A stretch of DNA of 12,576 nucleotides from Candidatus Kaiserbacteria bacterium (GTDB taxonomy: Bacteria > Patescibacteriota > Minisyncoccia > Phycocordibacterales > UBA2100): NCBI GenBank assembly GCA_016204805.1, contig JACQKA010000004.1, forward strand, positions 1 through 12,576, read 5' to 3'. Under the pieces are notes generated by a model, which had not been told where the DNA came from, ran no database searches, and worked only from the letters and a program-made list of their open reading frames with translations. The first letter of the stretch is position 1, and each line of letters starts with the position of its first letter. The position numbers and the translations under genes were made by a program. This document shows positions 1,224 through 12,549 of the stretch, one piece after another.

Positions 1224-2924
1224 TCATTCTGTTAATATCCGTGCGAGTTTCAGATCGTCGAATGAATAGACTCCCTTGAGTGCTTGGTGCACGGGGGTAA
1301 GCCGCTCGGTACCGTACCGTTTGAACGCGGCTTCGATGTGCGGAAGCGCTTTTTTGAGTGCGGGTGAAATCATGCGCGCGATCTGCTCTCGAGTGACTTC
1401 GTCTTTCATATACAGCTGTGTGATGTGATCGATAATCGTGCTCTGTTTGAGACCCCGCTCTTTCGCAATCTCTGCGATACTCTTCCCTGCCTGCGCAAGC
1501 GAAAGCGTCGATGCGTGCGAATCACCTTTTTTGGCAGTGCGTTGTGTTCTCTTTTTTGGTGCAACACCGCCCGCGATCGATCCTCCTGCAGCTTTGATGA
1601 AGCGATGGACGTGTTCAGTGTGATCGATACTATTCATCATGCCGAAATGACCGCGCGCATCGGCGGAACGGCGTTTGAATTCCATATCGTGTTCCTGCAC
1701 CTCGGGATGCGTTTCAAGCGCGCGATCGTTCCATCCGAGCACATGGAGTCCCGATAGATTGCGCACGCGCGACAGCGCCACATATCCTTGCCCGTATTCA
1801 AATGCTTCGCGCAGATCGATAACCGCCTCGTCGAGCGTCATGCCCTGCGATTTGTGCACGGTGATAGCCCACGCGAGTCGGAGCGGTAGCTGGGTAATGC
1901 GGCCCAAGATACGGCCGCTATCACCAATGACCCATTCCGCCGGCTCGACGCTGATAGTGCTTCCTCGCAAGGTGCGCACGGTGGGCACACCATCAGCCGC
2001 AATCGCCGTGACCTCTCCTAAGGTTCCGTTTGCAAACGCGCCACCTGAAAGGTCGTTCTTGGTGAACATGACGCGGGCGCCTTGTTTGAGCGTGAGCGTC
2101 TCGGGCGAAAGGCATCCCCGTTTTAGGTTCGCGATTATGCTTTCCGGTCCGTGCGACGTCATCGTATACGCATGGGGTTTCCCCGCCATCGACTGGAGAC
2201 GTTTCGTATTCAAATGGTCGACATCTTTGTTGTGCGAGAACAGCCGCGGCGCATCCGCGGGCGCATCGCCTTCGCGTACCGAACGGGATTTGAGCGTCTG
2301 TTTCGCTTTTTCTACGTCGCCCCCACGGCGGATAGCACTCAATAGATGCACGAATGCCGCGTCCGATTGCCGATGCTGTTCGGAAAGATAACAGACGATC
2401 GGGTTGAGCTTGGCCCATGCGCGCGAGCGGAATGCGAACGGTGACTCGCTTTCATCGTAATCAATGGTGGGCTCGGCGTTCCTCCGTACGATGGGAGGCA
2501 ATTGAAAGAAATCCCCCACGACGACGACCTGCATACCCCCGAACGGCTCGGTGCGTTCGCGCGCGGCGCGCAATACCATGTCCACCATCTCGAGCACATT
2601 GCCCGAGAGCATCGACACCTCGTCGATTATCAAAACTTCCGTGCCGCGTGCGCGGCGCTTCACGTTGCTTTTGTCGGCGATCTCCGCAACGTCCCATTCG
2701 GTCAGGTGATCGCGTATGCCGATGCCGCTCCATGAATGGATGGTCATGCCGCCTATGTGCGTCGCCGCAATGCCCGTCGATGCGGTTATCGCCGGTTCGA
2801 TACCGTGTTCGCGTAGCCATCGCACATAGCTATTGATGGTGTATGTCTTGCCGCTTCCTGGCTCGCCCGTGAGGAAAACATTCGCACCTGTTTTCAGAAC
2901 TTTGAGCGCTTCGTCCTGTGTCAT
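1224..2924 (-). CDS. PIF1/RecD-like superfamily 1 DNA helicase with a C-terminal helix-turn-helix domain
   Basis: The 566-aa ORF carries Walker A GEPGSGKT, motif II LIIDEVSM, the PIF1/RecD-type motif VVVGDFFQLPPI and the late motif ITVHKSQG. A C-terminal HTH-like segment reads LSLAQAGKSIAEIAKERGLKQSTIIDHI. Confidence 0.9.
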   Translation of the reverse strand: MTQDEALKVLKTGANVFLTGEPGSGKTYTINSYVRWLREHGIEPAITASTGIAATHIGGMTIHSWSGIGIRDHLTEWDVAEIADKSNVKRRARGTEVLIIDEVSMLSGNVLEMVDMVLRAARERTEPFGGMQVVVVGDFFQLPPIVRRNAEPTIDYDESESPFAFRSRAWAKLNPIVCYLSEQHRQSDAAFVHLLSAIRRGGDVEKAKQTLKSRSVREGDAPADAPRLFSHNKDVDHLNTKRLQSMAGKPHAYTMTSHGPESIIANLKRGCLSPETLTLKQGARVMFTKNDLSGGAFANGTLGEVTAIAADGVPTVRTLRGSTISVEPAEWVIGDSGRILGRITQLPLRLAWAITVHKSQGMTLDEAVIDLREAFEYGQGYVALSRVRNLSGLHVLGWNDRALETHPEVQEHDMEFKRRSADARGHFGMMNSIDHTEHVHRFIKAAGGSIAGGVAPKKRTQRTAKKGDSHASTLSLAQAGKSIAEIAKERGLKQSTIIDHITQLYMKDEVTREQIARMISPALKKALPHIEAAFKRYGTERLTPVHQALKGVYSFDDLKLARILTE

Positions 2925-3065
2925 ACCCGCACACCCATTCGCACCTTGCGGCTTCGCCGCGGCGCGCTATGAATAAAGCAACGTTTTGCAAAAAAAGCAC
3001 TCGCGAAACCACTGCCAAGAGGTTGTTTGGAAATATGCCTAGGTGCGAATGGGTGTGCGGGCATG
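2922..3065. repeat. 144-bp unit made of 24-bp inverted repeats (23/24 match, inner 20 perfect) flanking a 96-bp spacer and overlapping the helicase start codon
   Basis: Positions 2922-2945 read CATACCCGCACACCCATTCGCACC. Positions 3042-3065 read GGTGCGAATGGGTGTGCGGGCATG, whose reverse complement differs only at position 4 (A vs G). The CAT at 2922-2924 is the helicase ATG. Confidence 0.8.
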
Positions 3066-3096
3066 GACGGATTGTACACTACTGTCGTCCCTAACC

Positions 3097-3130
3097 AAAA
3101 ACCGCGCACGTTTGAGCGTGCGCGGTTTTT
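3097..3130 (-). terminator. Rho-independent, symmetric (bidirectional-type) terminator after the SIMPL gene
   Basis: AAAAA-CCGCGCACG-tttgag-CGTGCGCGG-TTTTT forms a 9-bp GC-rich stem with a 6-nt loop and has A/T runs on both sides. It starts 10 nt beyond the stop at 3140. Confidence 0.7.
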
Positions 3131-3139
3131 GCAGCCACT

Positions 3140-4777: not shown

Positions 4778-6156
4778 CTATGTATTTAATTTCTTTTCCC
4801 ACCTGTCTGCGATTGCTTTCGCTTTCTTGGCGGCAATACCCGTATACAGTTCAGACGAACCGAGCGCAGCACGCTGTGTCCGCGTCATTTTTTTAAGATA
4901 GTTTTTCATATCCGGATCATTCTTAATGACCTCTTCGAGAGCTTGCTGTCTCCGTTCCGCCTCAAGCGTAAGCAATCGTACTTTTTCATGTGCGTCAGGA
5001 TGTCCGAGAGAAGCGAGAATGATGTAGAGCGGCTCGGCAATGATCATTCCTTTTTGCAGTGCGAAATTCCGCCTTAGGTTACTTCGATCAACACTCAGTT
5101 TCCTCATCGCGCCTTCGAGTCGTTTTATCGTGACCACTGTATACCCGATCATTTCGCCATATGTTCGCGCGGAGGCGGAATTAGTCAGATCACGCTGGTG
5201 TTCGCTTATCTGATCCATGAACACAGTGATGAGGCGAGGCATGACGACTTTCCACATACTTTTCACATTCTCGAAATTGATAGGGTTACGCTTGTGCGGC
5301 ATGGTTGATGATCCAACCTGATTTGACGCAAACATCTCCCCCACTTCTCCTATTTCTGTCCGTTGGAGGTGTCGCATGTCATCGGCAAGATTTGCAAGGA
5401 TGCCCATCACTATCGTTACTTCGCACAACAGTCGCGCAAGCGGCTCTGGCGGCGCTATCTGAGTCGAGTGTTCAGCCGGAGTCAGCCCGAGTTCGACAAG
5501 CACCTCTGCTTCAAAGGATTCAGGATTCTTGAAAAACAGTGTCGATGCGTTATACGCACCAACGGCTCCAGAAAATTTCCCCGTCATAGTAATCGCGCGC
5601 GCTTCCAGCTCCTCAATGGATGTACCTAAACGGCTCACATAACCCGCAAGCGCAAAGCCGAATGTAATGGGCACCGCATGCTGACCATGTGTCCTGCCGA
5701 CTTGTACGGTCTCTGCTTCTCTGCGAACGATCCTAATGAGCATTTTTCTAATTTAGTAAGTGCTAGGGTGAGGACATGTTGAACCACTTCCTTAAAACGT
5801 AGCGCATTGGCCGAGTCGATGATGTCATAAGAGGTAGCCGTCATATGCACATACGGCTTTGCCGCATCGCTCACTTTGGACCGGATAACATTCACGAGCG
5901 CACGGATGTCGTGCCGGATCCGCTCTTCTTCTTTATATACTTCTTCAGGGGTCACTATCCTGCATGCGTGTTCGATTTCTCGAGCAATGCTTTTCGAACA
6001 GAGCCCCCGCCGATGCAAAACTTTGACGAGTGTTTTTTCGACAAGAAGTTTGTAGCGCAAAAATCCTTCTTCAGAAAGGTATTCCGCAACTTCTTTGTCC
6101 CAGTACCGATAGTCGATCGGTGAAATGCTCTCGAATTGGTTTCGTTTTTTCTTCAA
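4778..6156 (-). pseudogene. purB: Adenylosuccinate lyase interrupted by a 1-nt frameshift at an A5 run
   Basis: The N-terminal part (frame of ORF 5635-6336) reads ISPIDYRYWDKEVAEYLSEEGFLRYKL...HMTATSYDIIDSANALRF...LTKLEK. The C-terminal part (ORF 4778-5743) reads MLIRIVRREAETVQVGRTHGQHAVPITFG...SSTMPHKRNPINFEN, which carries the fumarate-lyase signature. The two parts abut at minus-strand GAAAAATG (plus T5, 5743-5747), and one extra A would fuse them. The only in-frame start after the tRNA is TTG at 6156. Confidence 0.8.
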
Positions 6157-6157
6157 G

Positions 6158-6241
6158 TGCGCAGGAGAGGACTTGAACCTCCACGCCCTTACGGGCACAG
6201 CCACCTCAAGGCTGCGCGGATACCAATTTCGCCACCTGCGC
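6158..6241 (-). tRNA. tRNA-Leu (anticodon GAG), long variable arm, no encoded CCA
   Basis: Hand fold: GCGCAGG TG GCGAAATTGGTATCCGC G CAGCC TTGAGGT GGCTG TGCCCGTAAGGGCGT GGAGG TTCAAGT CCTCT CCTGCGC A (84 nt). Confidence 0.9.
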
Positions 6242-6272
6242 AGGTGTTTGTCAAGAGCCGCATCCGATTCAG

Positions 6273-6935
6273 CTAAAGACGTTCCCCTACTATACCCAAG
6301 AATTTCTCTACTTTCAACCGCTTCCGCGAAAGACATACAACTTTCCGTGAATAATACATCTTGCGTAAAATTTTGAGGGAATCTGCCTTGGCATATTTCA
6401 GTTGTTCGGTTATCCCTCTTCCGTCCCGTGTAACGTGCCCCAAAATGTTAAGCCGCTTGAAAATTTCACTTTGCAACCATTTGATGTGTACGTGGCTTGC
6501 CGAAACGAAGGTCGTGTAAAACATGAAGCTAGATCTCCATCGAGGATCCCAATATGCATACGAGCAGCCATCTCCATCGTAAGAGCCCCTCAAAAAATCC
6601 CAAAACAGTCTCTTTGGGATCTTGAGTGAGCCTATTGTTTTTGATTTTGCCGGTGTCAAACCAATCGAGAAAAGAAACTCATAAAAAAGTGCGTTTTTGA
6701 ACTGCACGCGATAGGCTGTCTTTCCATCGCCGTTCGACTTCACTCCGATTTTTAAGGGGACGCCGAGACACTTCGAAAAATTTCTGAGCTGCTCCTGGTC
6801 TTTAGACGTAAGATCAATCAGATGAAAATATGGCGTCATGCACCCATCAGAAGCAAGCAAGCCGATGGCATACGCGAGCTCAGGCGTCCACTCCGTTGAA
6901 AAAATCTTCTTTGGCTTTGGACCTCTCTTCCCCAT
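6273..6935 (-). CDS. Free-standing double-motif LAGLIDADG homing endonuclease-like protein
   Basis: The 220-aa ORF has two LAGLIDADG-type motifs, LAYAIGLLASDGC and FLRGSYDGDGC, about 100 aa apart. GC content is visibly lower than in the flanking genes. Confidence 0.85.
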   Translation of the reverse strand: MGKRGPKPKKIFSTEWTPELAYAIGLLASDGCMTPYFHLIDLTSKDQEQLRNFSKCLGVPLKIGVKSNGDGKTAYRVQFKNALFYEFLFSIGLTPAKSKTIGSLKIPKRLFWDFLRGSYDGDGCSYAYWDPRWRSSFMFYTTFVSASHVHIKWLQSEIFKRLNILGHVTRDGRGITEQLKYAKADSLKILRKMYYSRKVVCLSRKRLKVEKFLGIVGERL

Positions 6936-7015
6936 TTCTTAACGATAACATATCCTCAAGGTAATAGCGTCTACCAATTGTGGATAAATAGAAAATCACA
7001 CCTATGTGACGTGTG

Positions 7016-7456
7016 TTACTCCTTTTTGTCTTCTGCTCCAACAGCGACTTCTTCTGCCGAGGCTTCAGCGGAAACTTCTGCAGTATCTGCAGTGGATACG
7101 CCCATCTCAGACATGCGGCGGAGGGCGCGCTTTGCTTCGCGAGCGACTTTTTCACGTACGTAGTAGAGCTTGGCGCGACGGACTTTCGAGCGGCGCACGA
7201 TCTCGAGACTGTCGATCATCGGCGAGTACAGCGGGAATGTGCGTTCCACGCCGACACCGCTTGCGACTTTGCGTACGGTACATGTAGCCCCCGCTTCGCG
7301 CCCGTGCTTTACCGAAAGCACGAGGCCTTCAAATAACTGCAGGCGGGTCTTGCCTTTTTCCTGAATCTTTTGCGAGACACGCACAATGTCACCCGCGCGG
7401 ATACCGAGTTCCGCTCGTGTTTTCATGTTGACCGGTGAAATCACAACCCCTTTCAT
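7016..7456 (-). CDS. rplS: 50S ribosomal protein L19 (bL19) with an acidic/Ala-rich C-terminal tail
   Basis: The 146-aa ORF reads GDIVRVSQKIQEKGKTRLQLFEGLVLSVKHGREAGATCTVRKVASGVGVERTFPLYSPMIDSLEIV, typical of bL19. The tail reads MSEMGVSTADTAEVSAEASAEEVAVGAEDKKE. Confidence 0.9.
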   Translation of the reverse strand: MKGVVISPVNMKTRAELGIRAGDIVRVSQKIQEKGKTRLQLFEGLVLSVKHGREAGATCTVRKVASGVGVERTFPLYSPMIDSLEIVRRSKVRRAKLYYVREKVAREAKRALRRMSEMGVSTADTAEVSAEASAEEVAVGAEDKKE

Positions 7457-7464
7457 AGGTGCGC

Positions 7465-7493
7465 ACTGTAACAGACGAAATCCGATTCTGCAA
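7465..7493 (-). promoter_or_regulatory. Sigma-70-like promoter whose -10 lies 8 nt upstream of the rplS ATG
   Basis: On the minus strand, TTGCAG (7488-7493) is followed by a 17-nt spacer, TACAGT (7465-7470), gcgcacct and then the ATG. Confidence 0.45.
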
Positions 7494-7526
7494 CTCGAGT
7501 TGACCTCGTTTGCGTTACTGAAAGTA

Positions 7527-7545
7527 GCCGCGTTTACGACGCGGC
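7527..7545. terminator. GC hairpin overlapping the pseudouridine synthase stop codon
   Basis: GCCGCG-tttacga-CGCGGC, with the stop codon in the loop. On the plus strand it is followed by GTTTTGTTG. On the minus strand it is followed by CUACUUUCAG, a weaker U tract. It sits between the rluA-family gene and the rplS promoter. Confidence 0.35.
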
Positions 7546-8298
7546 GTTTTGTTGTAACTTTGAAAACTCCGGGGGAGTTGGCGCGGTGAATGTTTTTTTC
7601 TCACCGGACGGCAGTGTGAGCGTGAGCGAACGCGCGTGAAGCGCCGGCCGCGTAAATCCTAAGAAGCACACTCTTCCTTCTGCATACAGATGATCACACA
7701 CTATGGGATGATGAATCGCTTTTAAGTGCACACGGATCTGGTGGGTGCGTCCCGTTTTCGGACGTACTTCTATGTGCGTAATTTTTTCTCCCGTTTCCGG
7801 ATCGACACCACGCGCGAGCACGTTCCACTCGGTGATGGCCACGCGCAATTTCCCTTTCTTCCCGTATTGCGCAGACCATCTGCGCGGATCGGTTTTCGTT
7901 CTCCCTATTTCCATTTCGATGACGCCACTGTCTTCTTTCGGATGCCCGTATACGATCGCATCGTATACTTTTTCTATCGTTCTCCCTTGGAACTGTTGTT
8001 TTAAGAATTCATGCGCTTCCGGCGTCTTCGCGACGATCATCACGCCTGATGTCGTGCGATCCAAACGGTGTACGATCCCGGGGCGCGGAACGACTTCGCC
8101 TTGCGGCGACGTCCACGGTTCACCGACATCTTTGAGTGCCGGATATTTCTCCAGAATCCATTCGACAACGGATGGCTCTTTCGTACGCCCGTCGGAATGT
8201 ACGATGAGTCCGGCAGGTTTATTGACCACGAGCACGCCGCTGTCTTCGTACAACACTACAGGCTCGTTAGGCTCCCATTCTGCGCTCGCGTTGTTCAT
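7534..8298 (-). CDS. RluA-family pseudouridine synthase (catalytic domain only, no S4 domain)
   Basis: The motifs are VVNKPAGLIVH, HRLDRTTSGVMIVAK (catalytic Asp) and PKTGRTHQIRVHL. The track ORF extends to 8763, but that part lies in an alternative frame inside uppS. The first plausible start is the ATG at 8298 (MNNASAEWEPNEPVVLYED), which overlaps the uppS 3' end by 32 nt. Confidence 0.85.
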   Translation of the reverse strand: MNNASAEWEPNEPVVLYEDSGVLVVNKPAGLIVHSDGRTKEPSVVEWILEKYPALKDVGEPWTSPQGEVVPRPGIVHRLDRTTSGVMIVAKTPEAHEFLKQQFQGRTIEKVYDAIVYGHPKEDSGVIEMEIGRTKTDPRRWSAQYGKKGKLRVAITEWNVLARGVDPETGEKITHIEVRPKTGRTHQIRVHLKAIHHPIVCDHLYAEGRVCFLGFTRPALHARSLTLTLPSGEKKTFTAPTPPEFSKLQQNAAS

Positions 8299-9013
8299 AT
8301 TCGGTAAGTATAGAGTCGAGTATCGATTCGCTGAAATCCGGCCAATACTGGTCGATGAAGAACAGTTCGGAATAGATGGATTGCCACGTGAGAAATCCTG
8401 AAAGACGTTTCTCGCCGCCGGTACGGATGATGATGTCGGGGTCCGACATGCCCCCACACCAATCACATAAAGTTCTGTTTCGCTCGTCAGCCTTTCTTCC
8501 ACACTTCGGACATGCCGATTGGTGTGGGGGCATGCCCGCGGTCCACAGTTGCGCACCGATACTTTCTTCGGTGATATTCCCCGCCGCACGTGCCGCAGCG
8601 GCGATCTCGGTGCGACCGCCGTATGACAGGCACACCCACAGCGTGAGCGCAGTATTCTTTTCGCTTTCCTTTTCGATGCGTTCCATTGACGCTCGCATAT
8701 CGGCATCGAAACGTTTACGCTCCCCCACGAATCGTATCCGTATATTCTCTTTTGCGAGCTCAATAAAATGAGTTTCTACGATGTCACGAAAAAGCTTCAT
8801 CAGGTACGAAACTTCTTCCGCCGCGCGATTCCAATTTTCAGTTGAGAAAGCGTACACTGCGAGGTGCTTCACGCCGCGGTCGCGCACCCATCGCACAGTG
8901 TCGCGTAGTCGTTCGGCACCCTGCCGATGCCCTTCTAGAGTCGGCAATCCGTGCTCTTTCGCCCACCGGCGATTACCGTCGAGAATGATGCCGATACATG
9001 CAGGAGTTTTCAT
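8267..9013 (-). CDS. uppS: Undecaprenyl (isoprenyl) diphosphate synthase carrying a 28-aa in-frame insertion
   Basis: The cis-prenyltransferase motifs are GIILDGNRRWA, FSTENWNR and IIRTGGEKRLSGFLTWQSIYSELFF..WPDF. The insertion PPHQSACPKCGRKADERNRTLCDWCGGM interrupts LWTAGM|SDPDIIIRTGGE. Confidence 0.9.
   Translation of the reverse strand: MKTPACIGIILDGNRRWAKEHGLPTLEGHRQGAERLRDTVRWVRDRGVKHLAVYAFSTENWNRAAEEVSYLMKLFRDIVETHFIELAKENIRIRFVGERKRFDADMRASMERIEKESEKNTALTLWVCLSYGGRTEIAAAARAAGNITEESIGAQLWTAGMPPHQSACPKCGRKADERNRTLCDWCGGMSDPDIIIRTGGEKRLSGFLTWQSIYSELFFIDQYWPDFSESILDSILTEYEQRERRMGA
8447..8534. repeat. Perfect 18-bp inverted repeats flanking 52 bp, forming an 84-bp in-frame insertion in uppS
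   Basis: CATGCCCCCACACCAATC (8447-8464) and GATTGGTGTGGGGGCATG (8517-8534) are exact reverse complements. CATGCCC occurs as a direct repeat at 8447-8453 and 8531-8537. Deleting 8451-8534 (84 nt) restores the canonical UppS sequence. Confidence 0.8.
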
Positions 9014-9017
9014 AGTG

Positions 9018-9290
9018 TTAGAAAATGATTTTGAAACCGTCGAATGATTGTGTCGGTTCTTGCCACTCTACGCGCACATCGTCGACACGCGCAAGCAGTG
9101 GTCCCTTGCGTAATTTTTCTACAAGCCGTTCCAAGTCTTCTTTATTTCCTTGCGCGACGACCTCGACCGTCCCGTTGTCGAGATTGCGCACGATGCCAGC
9201 AAGTCGCAACCCACGCGCCTTACGCTGTACAAAATCGCGATACATCACCATCTGCACGCGGCCCTTTACGATGCAGTGAATTTCTTGCAT
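9018..9290 (-). CDS. acyP: Acylphosphatase
   Basis: The 90-aa ORF carries VKGRVQMVMYRDFV (V.G.VQGV.FR motif), GIVRNLDNGTVEVVAQG and GPLLARV. Confidence 0.85.
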   Translation of the reverse strand: MQEIHCIVKGRVQMVMYRDFVQRKARGLRLAGIVRNLDNGTVEVVAQGNKEDLERLVEKLRKGPLLARVDDVRVEWQEPTQSFDGFKIIF

Positions 9291-9296
9291 AGATAT

Positions 9297-9304
9297 AGTA
9301 TACT
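9297..9304. promoter_or_regulatory. Palindromic AGTATACT giving a TATACT -10-like hexamer on both strands
   Basis: The minus-strand TATACT (9297-9302) lies 6 nt upstream of the acyP ATG. The plus-strand TATACT (9299-9304) lies 8 nt upstream of tRNA-Val position +1. The -35 regions are weak on both sides. Confidence 0.3.
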
Positions 9305-9312
9305 CGCGACGA

Positions 9313-9388
9313 GGGCGGTTAGCTCAGCTGGTAGAGCAATTCGTTTACACCGAAAAGGTCGCGGGTTCGAGTCCTGCACCGCCCACCA
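9313..9388 (+). tRNA. tRNA-Val (anticodon TAC) with encoded CCA
   Basis: Hand fold: GGGCGGT TA GCTC AGCTGGTA GAGC A ATTCG TTTACAC CGAAA AGGTC GCGGG TTCGAGT CCTGC ACCGCCC A CCA. It is the only plus-strand gene in the window. Confidence 0.9.
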
Positions 9389-9400
9389 AAATATTTTGTG

Positions 9401-9472
9401 TGCCCTCGGTTGGAATCGAACCAACATCAACGGCTTAGAAGTCCGACGCACTATCCATTGTGCTACGAGGGC
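9401..9472 (-). tRNA. tRNA-Arg (anticodon TCT) with a weak anticodon stem and no encoded CCA
   Basis: Hand fold: GCCCTCG TA GCAC AATGGATA GTGC G TCGGA CTTCTAA GCCGT TGAT GTTGG TTCGATT CCAAC CGAGGGC A. The acceptor, D and T arms are canonical. The anticodon stem has only 3 Watson-Crick pairs, with T27/T43 and A31/G39 mismatched. Confidence 0.65.
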
Positions 9473-9481
9473 GTGTGCCTA

Positions 9482-10018
9482 TTATACGCGTCTCCCTTTG
9501 CCTTGGGGATATACAGCCGCCATCCAGCGGATAATCATGTTGTCTTTGTGTTCAATCCAGTCGGTTGTGAAATCAAACCACACGCGGAAAAAATGCCTGC
9601 GCGAGACGGTGCGCAGGTGTCCGATCTCTGGGTCCTGTAGATAAATGTTTTCGTCATCGAGACCAACCACAATAGAATAGTGTCCGTCGGGCATCTCGTC
9701 TTCCGCAGACCCTTCCGGCCCCGGCGAGAACCAATCGACAACAACTGGTATCTTTTTATCGAGCCATTCCTGGACATCTTCGTATGTTGCGTGATCTTTC
9801 ACTATGGCCTCAAGACCGAATTGCTTCAATTCTTTAAGAAATGTTTCGTTGGTGGTGCCGAGATCCGGGTCCGTACCCAAAACAGTTGCGAGTTCAAGAT
9901 CGGTCTTTTCCTGCCCCGGCAGATTCCAGAACATGAGTAGCATTTTGAGCGTCGCCGGAGCGCACAAGCTCTGGTTGAGATACGTCTCTTGAAACGGTTG
10001 TACGGGGAGAAGTTCCAT
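9482..10018 (-). CDS. Peptidase C39-like (papain-fold) cysteine peptidase domain protein
   Basis: The 178-aa ORF has a candidate nucleophile in QSLCAPATLKMLLMFW, a candidate His in DGHYSIVVGLD and a following IYLQDP. This layout resembles standalone C39-like domains. There is no signal peptide. Confidence 0.65.
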   Translation of the reverse strand: MELLPVQPFQETYLNQSLCAPATLKMLLMFWNLPGQEKTDLELATVLGTDPDLGTTNETFLKELKQFGLEAIVKDHATYEDVQEWLDKKIPVVVDWFSPGPEGSAEDEMPDGHYSIVVGLDDENIYLQDPEIGHLRTVSRRHFFRVWFDFTTDWIEHKDNMIIRWMAAVYPQGKGRRV

Positions 10019-10025
10019 GGGACGC

Positions 10026-10054
10026 AGTATAAAACACCCTTATAAATAAGGCAA
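10026..10054 (-). promoter_or_regulatory. Sigma-70-like promoter whose -10 lies 7 nt upstream of the C39-like peptidase ATG
   Basis: On the minus strand, TTGCCT (10049-10054) is followed by a 17-nt spacer, TATACT (10026-10031), gcgtccc and then the ATG. Confidence 0.45.
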
Positions 10055-10074
10055 GTTGGGAATTTTGGAATAAA

Positions 10075-10395
10075 TTACGCGGGGTCGGCAACACGCACCG
10101 GCTCGCTTTTCGCTTTTTCAAACTGCAATTTCCGCTGTTCATACAAATCGAGCACGGCCTGGATTTGTTCGCGGCGCAACGTATCAACACTATCTTGCGA
10201 AACGGCCGCCGGATTCGCTTCCGGTTCCCAGGGCGATACGATAGACCACAGTGCGAATGCAACAGCCGATATCAGTACGATCCCGCACAGTGAAAGCAAG
10301 AGATCCCAGTAGCGCTCCATAAGTGCCCGCTCGCACCCCGGATCATGCCGTGCGTGCCATTGCCACATCATGACGTTCAAAAAAGGTATTCTCAT
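10075..10395 (-). CDS. Hypothetical single-pass membrane protein, fourth gene of the pilMNO cluster
   Basis: The start at 10395 (MRIPFLNVMM...) gives a TAG-T-ATG junction with pilO, matching the TGA-T-ATG junctions of pilM/pilN and pilN/pilO. The TM segment is YWDLLLSLCGIVLISAVAFALWSIV. The start is uncertain, and the ATG at 10320 is an alternative. Confidence 0.5.
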   Translation of the reverse strand: MRIPFLNVMMWQWHARHDPGCERALMERYWDLLLSLCGIVLISAVAFALWSIVSPWEPEANPAAVSQDSVDTLRREQIQAVLDLYEQRKLQFEKAKSEPVRVADPA

Positions 10396-10396
10396 A

Positions 10397-10924
10397 CTAA
10401 CTATTTTCTGCATCAGCGTAGACGCGCACGGTCATACTCATATTCCATGTCTTTTCCACTTTCTCCAAACGGAATTGTTCGATATGCGAAGGCAGTGGCA
10501 GTGTTTCTAAAAGTGTGATGAATTGATACAGCCGTTCGAACAATCCGACTGCGGCGAGGTTGACCGAATATGATGAGAGTGTTGGATCTTCGGATGCAGG
10601 GGAACCCGGCGTCACCGCATTCACCGTAACAGTGACACGTGCACTGCGTCCCGCGTCTTCGATGACGCGGATGACTTCCACCGGGTCGTATCCGCTCGTG
10701 ATGCTGTTCAGCTGTTCCCTATCCGTGCCAATGTCCCGCAGGAGTGCGCGCACCGATGACGTGTATGCCTGGCGCTGTGCGGCTTCGTTGTACGAATATT
10801 GGAGTTCGGACAACGCGCTCCGGTCACTATACATCTGATATGCGAGATACCCCACAGCGCCTACAGCAACACCCGCAAGCAGTATCGTGATGAGCGTCAA
10901 GGAATATGGGTAGCGTAATCGCAT
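10397..10924 (-). CDS. pilO: PilO-like type IV pilus assembly protein
   Basis: The 175-aa ORF has an N-terminal TM segment (LTLITILLAGVAVGAVGYLAY), then a coiled-coil-like region and a ferredoxin-like C-terminal part. The call rests mainly on position after pilM-pilN and on topology. Confidence 0.6.
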   Translation of the reverse strand: MRLRYPYSLTLITILLAGVAVGAVGYLAYQMYSDRSALSELQYSYNEAAQRQAYTSSVRALLRDIGTDREQLNSITSGYDPVEVIRVIEDAGRSARVTVTVNAVTPGSPASEDPTLSSYSVNLAAVGLFERLYQFITLLETLPLPSHIEQFRLEKVEKTWNMSMTVRVYADAENS

Positions 10925-10925
10925 A

Positions 10926-11456
10926 TCAAAATGATCCGCTCGCGGTTATCGTGAACGCGCCGCCTTCGATATTCGCAAGCGAGGTCAGTGGTACGGTGAC
11001 TTTGTCGATGGGTGCTTTGCCCTTGAGCGCCTCTGAATATGCCCTGAATGCCGAAGGATCGGATGCGGCACCTGAAACCGAGAGTGTTGACGCGCCGTCT
11101 TTGCGTCCATATACGAACGTGCGCAGTGCGACACCTTTCGGACGGTTGCTCAGCAACATCGAAAATGCCACTGAAAGTTCTGCCTTCTTGCCTATGGTGC
11201 CGAGAGCCGCCGTGCGCTTGCGCATAGCAAGCAGTATTTCACGATCCGACCGATCGTTGTCTTTGGCACTCTGTAACGCCGCGAGTGCTTCGGCTTTCGC
11301 AATGCGTTCGGTATGAGCGCGCATATATGCGGGTACGAGACCGAATATCACAGCGATCGAGGCGAAGAAACATAGGAGCGCACCTGTGAGAACGGCACGC
11401 CCCACCATCGCACGGCTCTGCGTCTTCAGCTGTTCTTGTGGAATGAGATTTGCCAT
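10926..11456 (-). CDS. pilN: PilN-like type IV pilus assembly protein
   Basis: The true start is the ATG at 11456 (MANLIPQEQLK), which gives the N-terminal NL(I/L)P motif that binds PilM, followed by a single TM segment. The track ORF extension to 11591 overlaps pilM. Confidence 0.7.
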   Translation of the reverse strand: MANLIPQEQLKTQSRAMVGRAVLTGALLCFFASIAVIFGLVPAYMRAHTERIAKAEALAALQSAKDNDRSDREILLAMRKRTAALGTIGKKAELSVAFSMLLSNRPKGVALRTFVYGRKDGASTLSVSGAASDPSAFRAYSEALKGKAPIDKVTVPLTSLANIEGGAFTITASGSF

Positions 11457-11457
11457 A

Positions 11458-12549
11458 TCAAATGCCGCGTAACGCGAGACCGATCGCGGTCGAGAGACCG
11501 AGCGCGTGATGTGAATCCACCGGCGGGATGTACTCTTCGAATGAGCAAACGTTCTGCCATACGTGCGCGTGGCTTGTCGGTGCACGCACACGCCCCGCTA
11601 TGTATTCGTCGAGTCCTTTCAGGTTCGAACTACCGCCAGTCAAGATGACACGCGACACCGGCGTTACGCGATTACCATGTTCATCGCGACGGGTGTCCCA
11701 GTATGAAAAGTGGCGGGCGACTTCATCTGCCAGAGCGCTTGCCGTACCGCTGATAGCTTCGACGACCTGCTTGTCGCCATCACGCGCGATGCCGTGTTCG
11801 TTCTTGAACTCTTCGGCTTTGTCGGCATCAACTTTCATCGTATCCATAATGACTTTTGTCATGGTGTCACCTCCGACTGACACCGTCGAAGTGAAGATGG
11901 GGATGCCTCTGTTCACGATGATGATACCCGTGCGGGCGCGGCCGAAATCCGCTATGAGCGCAACGTCTTTGCTCTGCGTGGGTAACACCGCCCGTGCAAT
12001 TGAACTGGCCTCGATTTCAAGCGAGAGCGGATCCGTACCCGCCACCTTGAATGCCTGCATATAGTCTTCGATCACTGTTTTCGGGAAGACTGACACGCTA
12101 ATCTCTGCGCCTTCATCGCCCCCATGCACATTCACGATGTCGTAATCATAGATTACACTGTCGGTTGGAAGCGGCACATGATCCTCGAGTTCAAATTCGA
12201 TCATGCGCATCACTTGCTCGCGATTATCGATCCCGAGCACGTGCATGGTGAACACGAAGCCAGTTTCTTCGGGAAGCGCTGCATGCACATAGGGAACAGC
12301 ATGCGCCGCGTCGCGAAGACCCGCGATGATTTTTCCCAGACGTTCGGAATCCTGCACGAGACCTTCGACGACGATACCCGGTTCGAGAGACGCTTGCGTA
12401 AAAGCCTCCACCTTCAACCCATGCGTCGACGGGGCGAGCGAGAGCCATTTGACAGAACTGTCAGAAATATCAACGCCGGCGGCATGCGGCGCAAGCATGT
12501 TTGGTAACGGGAACCATCGCTCCAAGAACCCCCGTGCATGCGGAGCCAT
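11458..12549 (-). CDS. pilM: Type IV pilus assembly ATPase-fold protein PilM
   Basis: The 363-aa actin-like fold shows GVDISDSSVKW, IADFGRARTGIIIV, VSVGGDTMT and VILTGGSSNLKGL. The start may be the internal Met at 12498. Confidence 0.85.
   Translation of the reverse strand: MAPHARGFLERWFPLPNMLAPHAAGVDISDSSVKWLSLAPSTHGLKVEAFTQASLEPGIVVEGLVQDSERLGKIIAGLRDAAHAVPYVHAALPEETGFVFTMHVLGIDNREQVMRMIEFELEDHVPLPTDSVIYDYDIVNVHGGDEGAEISVSVFPKTVIEDYMQAFKVAGTDPLSLEIEASSIARAVLPTQSKDVALIADFGRARTGIIIVNRGIPIFTSTVSVGGDTMTKVIMDTMKVDADKAEEFKNEHGIARDGDKQVVEAISGTASALADEVARHFSYWDTRRDEHGNRVTPVSRVILTGGSSNLKGLDEYIAGRVRAPTSHAHVWQNVCSFEEYIPPVDSHHALGLSTAIGLALRGI

Follow-up and report, generated by a model that had tools for sequence, protein, structure and literature searches.

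A palindromic insertion in uppS of a Candidatus Kaiserbacteria genome and a probable family of MITE-like elements in Patescibacteria

The essential cell-wall gene uppS of a Candidatus Kaiserbacteria genome carries a palindromic insertion that is very probably a copy of a mobile element. We analyzed a 12,576-nt stretch of this genome (contig JACQKA010000004.1, assembly GCA_016204805.1; hereafter the window) in which uppS, encoding undecaprenyl-diphosphate synthase (UppS), contains a block bounded by inverted repeats, here called e1. The insertion of this palindrome into uppS is real, with sharp bounds and in frame. The block can with good confidence be assigned to a small, hairpin-forming, non-coding family that resembles the miniature inverted-repeat transposable elements known as MITEs and has spread through the ultra-small bacteria of the Candidate Phyla Radiation (CPR, Patescibacteria). 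An 80-nt element would have inserted at a CATG in the Gly-Met-Pro codons of UppS and duplicated this tetranucleotide, for a net gain of 84 nt. As 80 + 4 divides by three and the element frame has no stop codon, the gene would have remained open, gaining 28 residues in a loop that immediately precedes the IRTGGE strand. In its present state the insert would most likely be a tolerated surface loop, largely unstructured or loosely structured. We infer movement of the element by a transposase that cuts with a 4-bp stagger, translation of the insert and continued activity of UppS. The features of the gene and the insertion site are as follows, in window coordinates.

8267 to 9013, minus strand: uppS (undecaprenyl-diphosphate synthase, a cis-prenyltransferase), 248 aa, open reading frame (ORF) intact with the insert
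8447 to 8464 and 8517 to 8534: inverted-repeat arms in uppS, 18 nt each, 100% complementary, 52 nt between them
8451 to 8530, no strand: e1 core, 80 nt, termini CCCCCACACCAATC...GATTGGTGTGGGGG, bounds by family consensus
8451 to 8464, no strand: e1 terminal inverted repeat, 14 nt, arm on the uppS 3' side, encoding D-W-C-G-G on the coding strand
8517 to 8530, no strand: e1 terminal inverted repeat, 14 nt, arm on the uppS 5' side
8447 to 8450, no strand: CATG, copy 1 of the flanking duplication; a single CATG stands at the empty site of relatives, GCAGGCATGCCCGAT
8531 to 8534, no strand: CATG, copy 2 of the flanking duplication, including the UppS Met161 codon
8444 to 8527, minus strand: 28 extra codons, residues 163-190, PHQSACPKCGRKADERNRTLCDWCGGMS, from protein alignment with homologues
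8444 to 8446, minus strand: junction codon TCG (Ser190), Pro in homologues (CCC in the relative L001)

The insertion in uppS is exactly 84 nt long and consists of an 80-nt element plus a duplicated CATG. The ORF product matches the Pfam family Prenyltransf (PF01255, 2.6e-73 in a profile search) and reads LWTAGMPPHQSACPKCGRKADERNRTLCDWCGGMSDPDIIIRTGGE around the insert when ORF 8267-9013 is translated. Across the insert and its borders, the coding strand runs ...GGC ATG CCC CCA CAC CAA TCG ... TGT GAT TGG TGT GGG GGC ATG TCG GAC CCC GAC..., which translates to WTAGMPPHQSACPKCGRKADERNRTLCDWCGGMSDPDIIIRTGGE. The 102-nt palindrome stretch folds with -28.2 kcal/mol compared with -13.7 +/- 2.5 kcal/mol for 200 dinucleotide shuffles (z -5.9). 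An earlier note on this DNA had described perfect 18-nt inverted repeats around 52 nt, an in-frame insertion of 28 codons and a bordering 7-bp direct repeat, CATGCCC. The repeats are indeed perfect, each arm consisting of the 14-nt element terminus and the palindromic CATG, and the insertion is borne out both by alignment with homologues and by blastn against L001. CATGCCC occurs twice on the plus strand (8447-8453 and 8531-8537) but is not a 7-bp unit: it is the 4-nt CATG duplication extended by three coincidental nucleotides, because the element starts with CCC and the host reads GGGCATG. The bounds of e1 were set accordingly from the family, in which identical 4-nt flanks start exactly outside CCCCC/GGGGG.

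Relatives of the Kaiserbacteria UppS possess an empty site. About 8000 UppS relatives were retrieved from a large protein collection; the top matches are 220-227 aa long and stem from Parcubacteria/Paceibacterota-type metagenome-assembled genomes (MAGs). In an orthologue alignment of the kind proposed in the earlier note, the 16 nearest homologues (66-88% identity) all read WTAGMPDPDIIIRTGGE without extra residues. In the same alignment the 28-residue insert recurs only in P0001, a fragment 100% identical to the window UppS. The closest relative, locus L001, is syntenic with ca. 74-86% nucleotide identity across window positions 5314-12028, and its empty site reads GCAGGCATGCCC / GATCCGGAC with one CATG; where the blastn segments of window and L001 adjoin, the two differ by a net length of exactly 84 nt. 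e1 is likewise absent from L003 and L004, where the site also holds a single CATG. The conserved UppS sequence, which the earlier note expected to be restored by deletion of the block, is GMPDPD and not GMSDPD: the codon behind the downstream CATG is TCG (Ser), where homologues have Pro in 16/16. At the upstream junction, Met-Pro is recreated from the element's own CCC. At the downstream junction, the window UppS has Met-Ser in place of the Met-Pro found in all 16 homologues.

Two explanations that do away with a functional, element-bearing uppS can be weighed at this point. The insert is located 8 residues before the catalytic Arg of IRTGGE and the invariant Pro after Met is changed to Ser at the downstream junction. 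As only 12.6 kb of the genome are in view, uppS might be a recent pseudogene inactivated by the insertion, with another cis-prenyltransferase elsewhere in the genome substituting for it. This is improbable given that the ORF is open, that the left junction recreates Met-Pro and that all 54 columns invariant among 17 UppS homologues, including DGNRRWA, FSTENWNR and IRTGGE.R.S, are kept. In-frame inserts in many other essential genes of related organisms, described below, also argue for tolerance. The second explanation is an assembly artefact, a chimera having been considered in the earlier note, or an ordinary lineage-specific loop extension unconnected to mobile DNA; the data are metagenome-assembled and the insert is found on one other contig only. 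It has next to no probability in light of the precise in-frame insertion with duplicated CATG and canonical family termini, the more than 150 family copies elsewhere and a Logan contig from SRR12113384 that is identical to the window over 2096 nt, insert included, and possibly stems from the same reads.

The termini of e1 define a family found mainly in Patescibacteria. We scanned one genome per GTDB species (596 Gb) with the pattern GCCCNCACACCNAT-N39-69-ATNGGTGTGNGGGC and identified the terminus motif CCCCCACACCnAT...ATnGGTGTGGGGG at 29 loci, compared with <0.1 expected by chance for 24 specified bases and 31 gap lengths at uniform base composition. Labels of 25 loci fall within Patescibacteria, namely Saccharibacteria, Nomura-, Kaiser-, Uhr-, Falkow- and Wildermuthbacteria and Paceibacterota. 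Three loci (L007, L013 and L030) carry other labels: two Nitrospinota MAGs with similar interiors and a gammaproteobacterial 886-kb chromosome. These possibly represent mislabelled or misbinned CPR-like genomes or true spread beyond Patescibacteria. With the flanks left unconstrained, the pattern matched at least 120 stretches of metagenome DNA and not a single viral contig. The terminus can be modeled as CCCCCACACCWAT followed by about 8 variable paired positions, and family cores are mostly 61-87 nt long with a mode of 68-69 nt. The two arms of a given copy share the same variant at positions 11 and 14-21, and agreement drops to background level at position 22; at position 14, for example, the arms agree in 0.79 of copies, as against 0.36 for permuted partners. 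This puts the length of the effective inverted repeat at about 21 nt. Interiors are not conserved across the family. The search for further copies proposed in the earlier note was successful for the termini, with a related copy in the window and the family elsewhere, but not for the interior of e1, which has no relative by blastn-short in about 1 Mb of fetched loci; the family is defined by its termini alone. Rfam searches at gathering thresholds returned only tRNAs in the window and 12 loci. None of the terminus pairs 200-4000 nt apart encloses a unit as large as a transposase gene; matching flanks were found only for variants of 281 and 309 nt, while the other pairs represent adjacent small copies, for example those flanking recA in L105.

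Family copies are flanked by 4-nt duplications. Flanking tetranucleotides are identical in 72 of 152 unique copies (47%) and differ at one position in another 27, while a control shifted by 4 nt gave 1/152; the signal is sharp at n = 4. The duplicated 4-mers are CAAG/CTTG (24), TAAA/TTTA (16), TCAA/TTGA (8), TATA (6), CAGG (3), CATG (2), CGCG and others, with an outward consensus of T/C-W-W-A/G. Similar interiors are found with different flanks in different Saccharibacteria genomes. Unequal flank pairs also recur in unrelated copies (TTCA/TAAA 11, TACA/TAAA 6; for example L047, L071, L090, L131, L132 and L142). One flank is very often TAAA with a varying partner (TTCA, TACA, TATA, TTTA), as could result if the family moved as single-stranded DNA through an HUH/Y1 enzyme, similar to IS200/IS605 or the repetitive extragenic palindromic (REP) elements and their REP-associated tyrosine transposases (RAYT), and not through a DDE transposase. 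One tetranucleotide would then belong to the element and the other to the target. Such a route would still yield a net insertion of core + 4, as the in-frame copies demand, and would be compatible with hairpin elements whose arms covary to about 21 nt. We nevertheless consider it unlikely. Flanks are identical in 47% of copies across many different 4-mers, TAAA/TAAA (16) is far more common than TTTA/TAAA (3), and one long terminal inverted repeat is present in place of the two separate subterminal hairpins of IS200/IS605. No Y1 gene was noticed nearby, a genome-wide Y1 search lying outside the analysis. In L052, two copies 1.3 kb apart (414-482 and 1711-1779) share their flanks on either side (TTCA ... 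TTTCacgtgaaaca), which suggests a tandem segmental duplication with the element at its bounds.

Assignment of e1 to a family of transposase-mobilized, MITE-like elements remains the preferred interpretation, and several observations weigh against it. The search patterns fix terminus positions 1-10 and 12-13, meaning that conservation there is by construction; this does not apply to taxonomic breadth and copy number. Recurrent unequal flanks do not fit random decay of a 4-bp duplication. No autonomous copy with a transposase between the same termini was found in the roughly 1 Mb of fetched loci. In uppS itself, the downstream TCG would call for one or two later substitutions or for a different event at the junction, and the possible shared read origin of the Logan contig limits what it adds as confirmation of the assembly. 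Finally, only two copies are visible from the source organism, in 12.6 kb.

The second of these copies, e2, is intergenic and located 5.4 kb from e1. The 18-mer pattern gave three matches in the window at no more than 3 mismatches compared with 0.01 expected, and the termini of the two elements are of the same kind (CATGCCCGCACACCCAT vs CATGCCCCCACACCAAT). The features of e2 are the following.

2926 to 3061, no strand: e2 core, 136 nt, intergenic, CCCGCACACCCATTCGCACCT...AGGTGCGAATGGGTGTGCGGG
2922 to 2946 and 3041 to 3065: e2 inverted-repeat arms, 25 nt, 96% complementary, 94 nt between them
2922 to 2925, no strand: e2 flank CATA, on the minus strand TATG with the ATG start of a PIF1-like helicase gene
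3062 to 3065, no strand: e2 flank CATG, one mismatch to the opposite flank

e2 folds with a z of -5.8 and is neighbored by a terminator-like hairpin (3096-3131) on one side and the start of the PIF1-like helicase gene (1224-2924, minus strand) on the other. In L017, a Kaiserbacteria locus of ca. 70% nucleotide identity, a CATG/CATG-flanked family copy (2544-2673) occupies the equivalent place beside a SIMPL gene, without the 1.7-kb helicase gene found next to e2. The arms differ between e2 and the L017 copy and are still complementary within each, a pattern that points to orthology with compensatory change or to a hotspot of insertion. The right terminus of the L017 copy (2640-2669) is broken by a 16-nt mini-hairpin (GGTGTG-AGCTCGCAAAGCGAGC-GGGGG).

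Family copies are present in frame within other genes. Most copies are intergenic, and 32 of 169 are found in frames that are open for at least 30 codons to both sides. At least 12 copies are located in frame within genes encoding Pfam domains on both sides, all with (core + 4) divisible by 3. Ten such ORFs were checked; in each of them Pfam domains border the insert or extend across it without a change of frame, and in several the stretch matched by the profile is longer than the profile by about the size of the insert. The genes with in-frame copies are the following.

Mur ligase, two loci
PriA, two loci
PheT, between the B3_4 and B5 domains
TypA/BipA, within domain II
ABC ATPase
HAD hydrolase
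ATP synthase gamma (AtpG)
Family-2 glycosyltransferase (GT2)
GT1/GT4 glycosyltransferase
ComEC-type membrane protein (ComEC-N)

Two terminus reading frames are used, PPH(Q/L)...(W/R)CGG, which is the uppS frame, and xPHT(N/Y)...IGVGV. Of the 894 frames of 149 unique copies, 339 contain no stop codon, compared with 274 +/- 10.5 in dinucleotide-preserving shuffles of the interiors (n = 200, maximum 313 open frames). The family is therefore unusually compatible with translation. Taken together, the empty site, the second copy, the family of more than 150 copies and the other genic copies support the earlier proposal of a mobile palindrome that inserts in frame like Rickettsia palindromic elements (RPEs).

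Some copies are associated with gene starts and possibly with promoters. In L093 (2522-2601; also in L094 and L126) a type IV pilin-like gene has a copy at its 5' end; the original ATG (MKKG...) reaches a stop within the element, and an element-internal ATG opens the pilin frame. The new leader reads MNMIQTNRPNQRLHTGSKLVWG followed by FTIIEL, its final residues being encoded by the element terminus. In L018 a CATG/CATG-flanked copy (5676-5760) is found directly upstream of a gene of about 1030 aa (within a 1162-aa stop-to-stop ORF with an upstream GTG), and a start codon (ATG TCG GAC ACC...) is probably supplied by its downstream CATG. This copy is followed by ten bases, CATGTCGGAC, that are identical to the downstream junction of the window uppS. 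In about 15 of 17 cases, CTTG-flanked copies (L005-L033; for example L012 2487-2556, L017 620-689 and L031 3961-4042) read ...GGGGG-CTTGC(A/T)T or CTTGAC toward the next gene, which starts at a distance of 30-220 nt. Possibly the duplicated CTTG forms the upstream edge of a -35-like hexamer, which would let the promoter survive insertion. TTGA, TATA and TAAA targets are consistent with this promoter-edge idea.

The four-cysteine pattern of the UppS insert is partly set by the element terminus. Peptides predicted from insert-bearing UppS include TLCDWCGGMSDPDIIIR, and the insert holds CPKCG-x10-CDWCG, two CxxC knuckles with zinc-ribbon spacing, which the earlier note had read as a mini zinc-ribbon. 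The pattern arises in part because the terminus sequence TGG TGT GGG GG reads W-C-G-G: CDWCG is encoded by the element end (TGT GAT TGG TGT GGG GG), and CPKCG alone comes from the unique interior. The same peptide end recurs when the non-genic copies L096, L116 and L128 are translated. Two CxxC motifs are found in 1 of 105 stop-free same-frame family translations, the uppS copy; though the arrangement is rare, chance and selection are indistinguishable for a single instance. The insert shows likeness to the ribbons of bL32, RpoM and eL37 and to Pfam DZR, all below threshold. No zinc-ribbon Pfam family matches the insert peptide at threshold (best DZR, 18.3 bits vs a cut-off of 27.3 bits), and the best PDB sequence match spanning the insert has an E-value of 0.28. 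The lowest PDB E-value for the whole sequence, 0.006 (2i13, Aart), results from short repeated CPxCG stretches, none of which passes singly.

Structure prediction retains the UppS fold. In an AlphaFold2 model of UppS with the insert, the fold of undecaprenyl-diphosphate synthases is kept with a mean predicted local distance difference test score (pLDDT) of 77. Foldseek matches the model to 4q9o at a template modelling score of 0.76, and the UppS sequence matches PDB entry 1f75 at 5e-52. The model would place the insert between a helix (149-153) and a strand (194-197), in the loop before the IRTGGE strand, the location raised in the earlier note. Insert pLDDT is about 41-51, with values <50 at residues 163-167 and 175-190, and constitutes weak evidence as the 17-sequence alignment underlying the model is shallow over the insert. 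AlphaFold2 did not predict a confident knuckle or beta-hairpin fold for the insert. The arrival of a mobile element might have been followed by exaptation, the insert now being a functional four-cysteine zinc knuckle or ribbon that stabilizes the loop or adds an interaction surface. The zinc-ribbon spacing of CPKCG-x10-CDWCG, the weak likeness to known ribbons, the uniqueness of the paired CxxC among the 105 translations and the intact ORF and arms would fit such a module. We think it rather unlikely, more so than the single-strand route discussed above, as one knuckle is set by terminus DNA that recurs in non-genic copies, all family and PDB matches are sub-threshold, the insert is modeled at low pLDDT and no homologue carries it, leaving no conservation to indicate selection. 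Other in-frame copies in the same frame have only one or two cysteines. Of the earlier claims on the peptide, the cysteine pattern stands; the ribbon itself, which lacks any family or PDB match at threshold, and the domesticated metal-binding module are unsupported in view of the terminus-encoded CDWCG, the DZR score and the low pLDDT. Judged from its sequence, zinc binding by the tolerated loop is possible but unsupported.

Other classes of element were considered and set aside. A DNA-uptake sequence was rejected given the rarity of solo termini and the presence of flank duplications. An integron attC site is an imperfect palindrome that ends in the core sites RYYYAAC ... GTTRRRY; this class was rejected, the termini CCCCCACACC / GGTGTGGGGG having no AAC/GTT cores. 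An intein was rejected as 28 aa are too short and contain no intein blocks, and an intron was rejected with no evidence of excision. The e2 arm AGGTGCGAAT resembles the IS5 terminal repeat, with the motif in an internal position and oriented the opposite way.

Two further features of the window are separate from the family. A LAGLIDADG-type ORF (6273-6935, minus strand, 220 aa; Pfam LAGLIDADG_3, 9e-5) is located in a lower-GC stretch with tRNA-Leu (6157-6241) and rplS as neighbors. Window positions 6360-6954 (ca. 595 nt) have no counterpart in the syntenic L001, and the ORF looks like the insertion of a free-standing homing-endonuclease gene. The purB gene (adenylosuccinate lyase, 4778-6100, minus strand) is split by an apparent frameshift near 5700-5745. 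Its N-terminal part (…ISPIDYRYW…HMTATSYDIID…) lies in the frame of ORF 5635-6336 and its C-terminal part corresponds to ORF 4778-5743, with Lyase_1 matching from profile position 148 onward. In L001 a single uninterrupted gene is called at this position; the split purB is either a pseudogene or a sequence error.

A broader proposal, which we advance tentatively and hold to be somewhat less than an even chance, is that the family constitutes undescribed, superphylum-wide "protein-coding palindromes" of CPR/Patescibacteria. They would be a second, independent counterpart of RPEs, stop-free and repeatedly entering essential proteins, start codons and signal peptides, with the uppS copy yielding a de novo four-cysteine metal-binding loop. 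A paper by Ogata et al. from 2002 reportedly presents protein-coding palindromes in its title as a Rickettsia peculiarity. If a comparable family exists across Patescibacteria, in-frame colonization of essential genes by tiny mobile hairpins would recur in reduced, host-dependent genomes. The family could account for some unexplained insertions in CPR proteins, and its 13-nt signature could be used by annotators to flag inserts, altered start codons and altered leader peptides. It also raises the question of which enzyme moves an element whose terminus spans so many CPR classes. uppS represents a natural experiment on the tolerance of a cis-prenyltransferase loop beside the strand that binds isopentenyl diphosphate. 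A literature search for MITEs or palindromic elements of Patescibacteria, CPR or Saccharibacteria and for the terminus string, with most subscription journals outside its reach, found no description, and a 2024 MITE review does not mention CPR.

The family and its uppS copy can be compared with several known systems. The UppS insert shares CPxCG ... CxxCG and the 10-residue spacer with the zinc ribbons of bL32, RpoM and DZR but differs in having no significant match and no confident structure and in originating from transposon DNA instead of a domain family. Like REP elements, bacterial interspersed mosaic elements (BIMEs) with RAYT and the IS200/IS605-derived palindrome-associated transposable elements (PATEs), the family forms extragenic hairpins beside which a tetranucleotide matters. 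Those systems lack target duplications and have separate short hairpins, whereas the CPR family has one long inverted repeat and commonly identical 4-nt flanks. To our knowledge, most described MITE families are restricted to one genus or species; the 13-nt terminus core of the CPR family is in contrast common to many CPR classes (Saccharibacteria, Paceibacteria-type groups, Uhr-, Falkow- and Wildermuthbacteria). Bacterial MITE families include Correia, ERIC, Nezha, RUP and others (PMC10969869, PMC3184786). The CPR family resembles them in being small, in having no transposase ORF, in its terminal inverted repeats and the direct repeats at its flanks, in the dispersal of its copies and in occasional in-frame fusions. 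Of the features by which MITEs are recognized, small size, inverted repeats, target-site duplication with an empty site and multiple dispersed copies were found. The CPR family differs in that no parent insertion sequence was found in about 1 Mb of fetched loci and in its family-wide depletion of stop codons. RPEs are said to have been described by Ogata et al. in 2000 (Science 290:347) and 2002 (Genome Res 12:808). They are palindromes found in frame in Rickettsia housekeeping genes, where they add a peptide and leave the ORF open (PMC10969869). Compared with RPEs, the CPR family has a different host (CPR, not Rickettsia), a smaller size (61-87 nt vs about 100-150 nt for RPEs), apparently unrelated termini, clear duplications of 4 nt at the flanks and no conserved peptide beyond the terminus-encoded PPH(Q/L)...(W/R)CGG or xPHT(N/Y)...IGVGV. 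Its genic fraction is also lower, ca. 12 of 118 copies in the unbiased set compared with nearly half for three RPE families. The CPR family thus appears to be an analogue of RPEs and not a member, being set apart by host and size class. Both consist of short palindromes in a lineage with reduced genomes, inserted in frame in unrelated housekeeping genes and accompanied by many intergenic copies.

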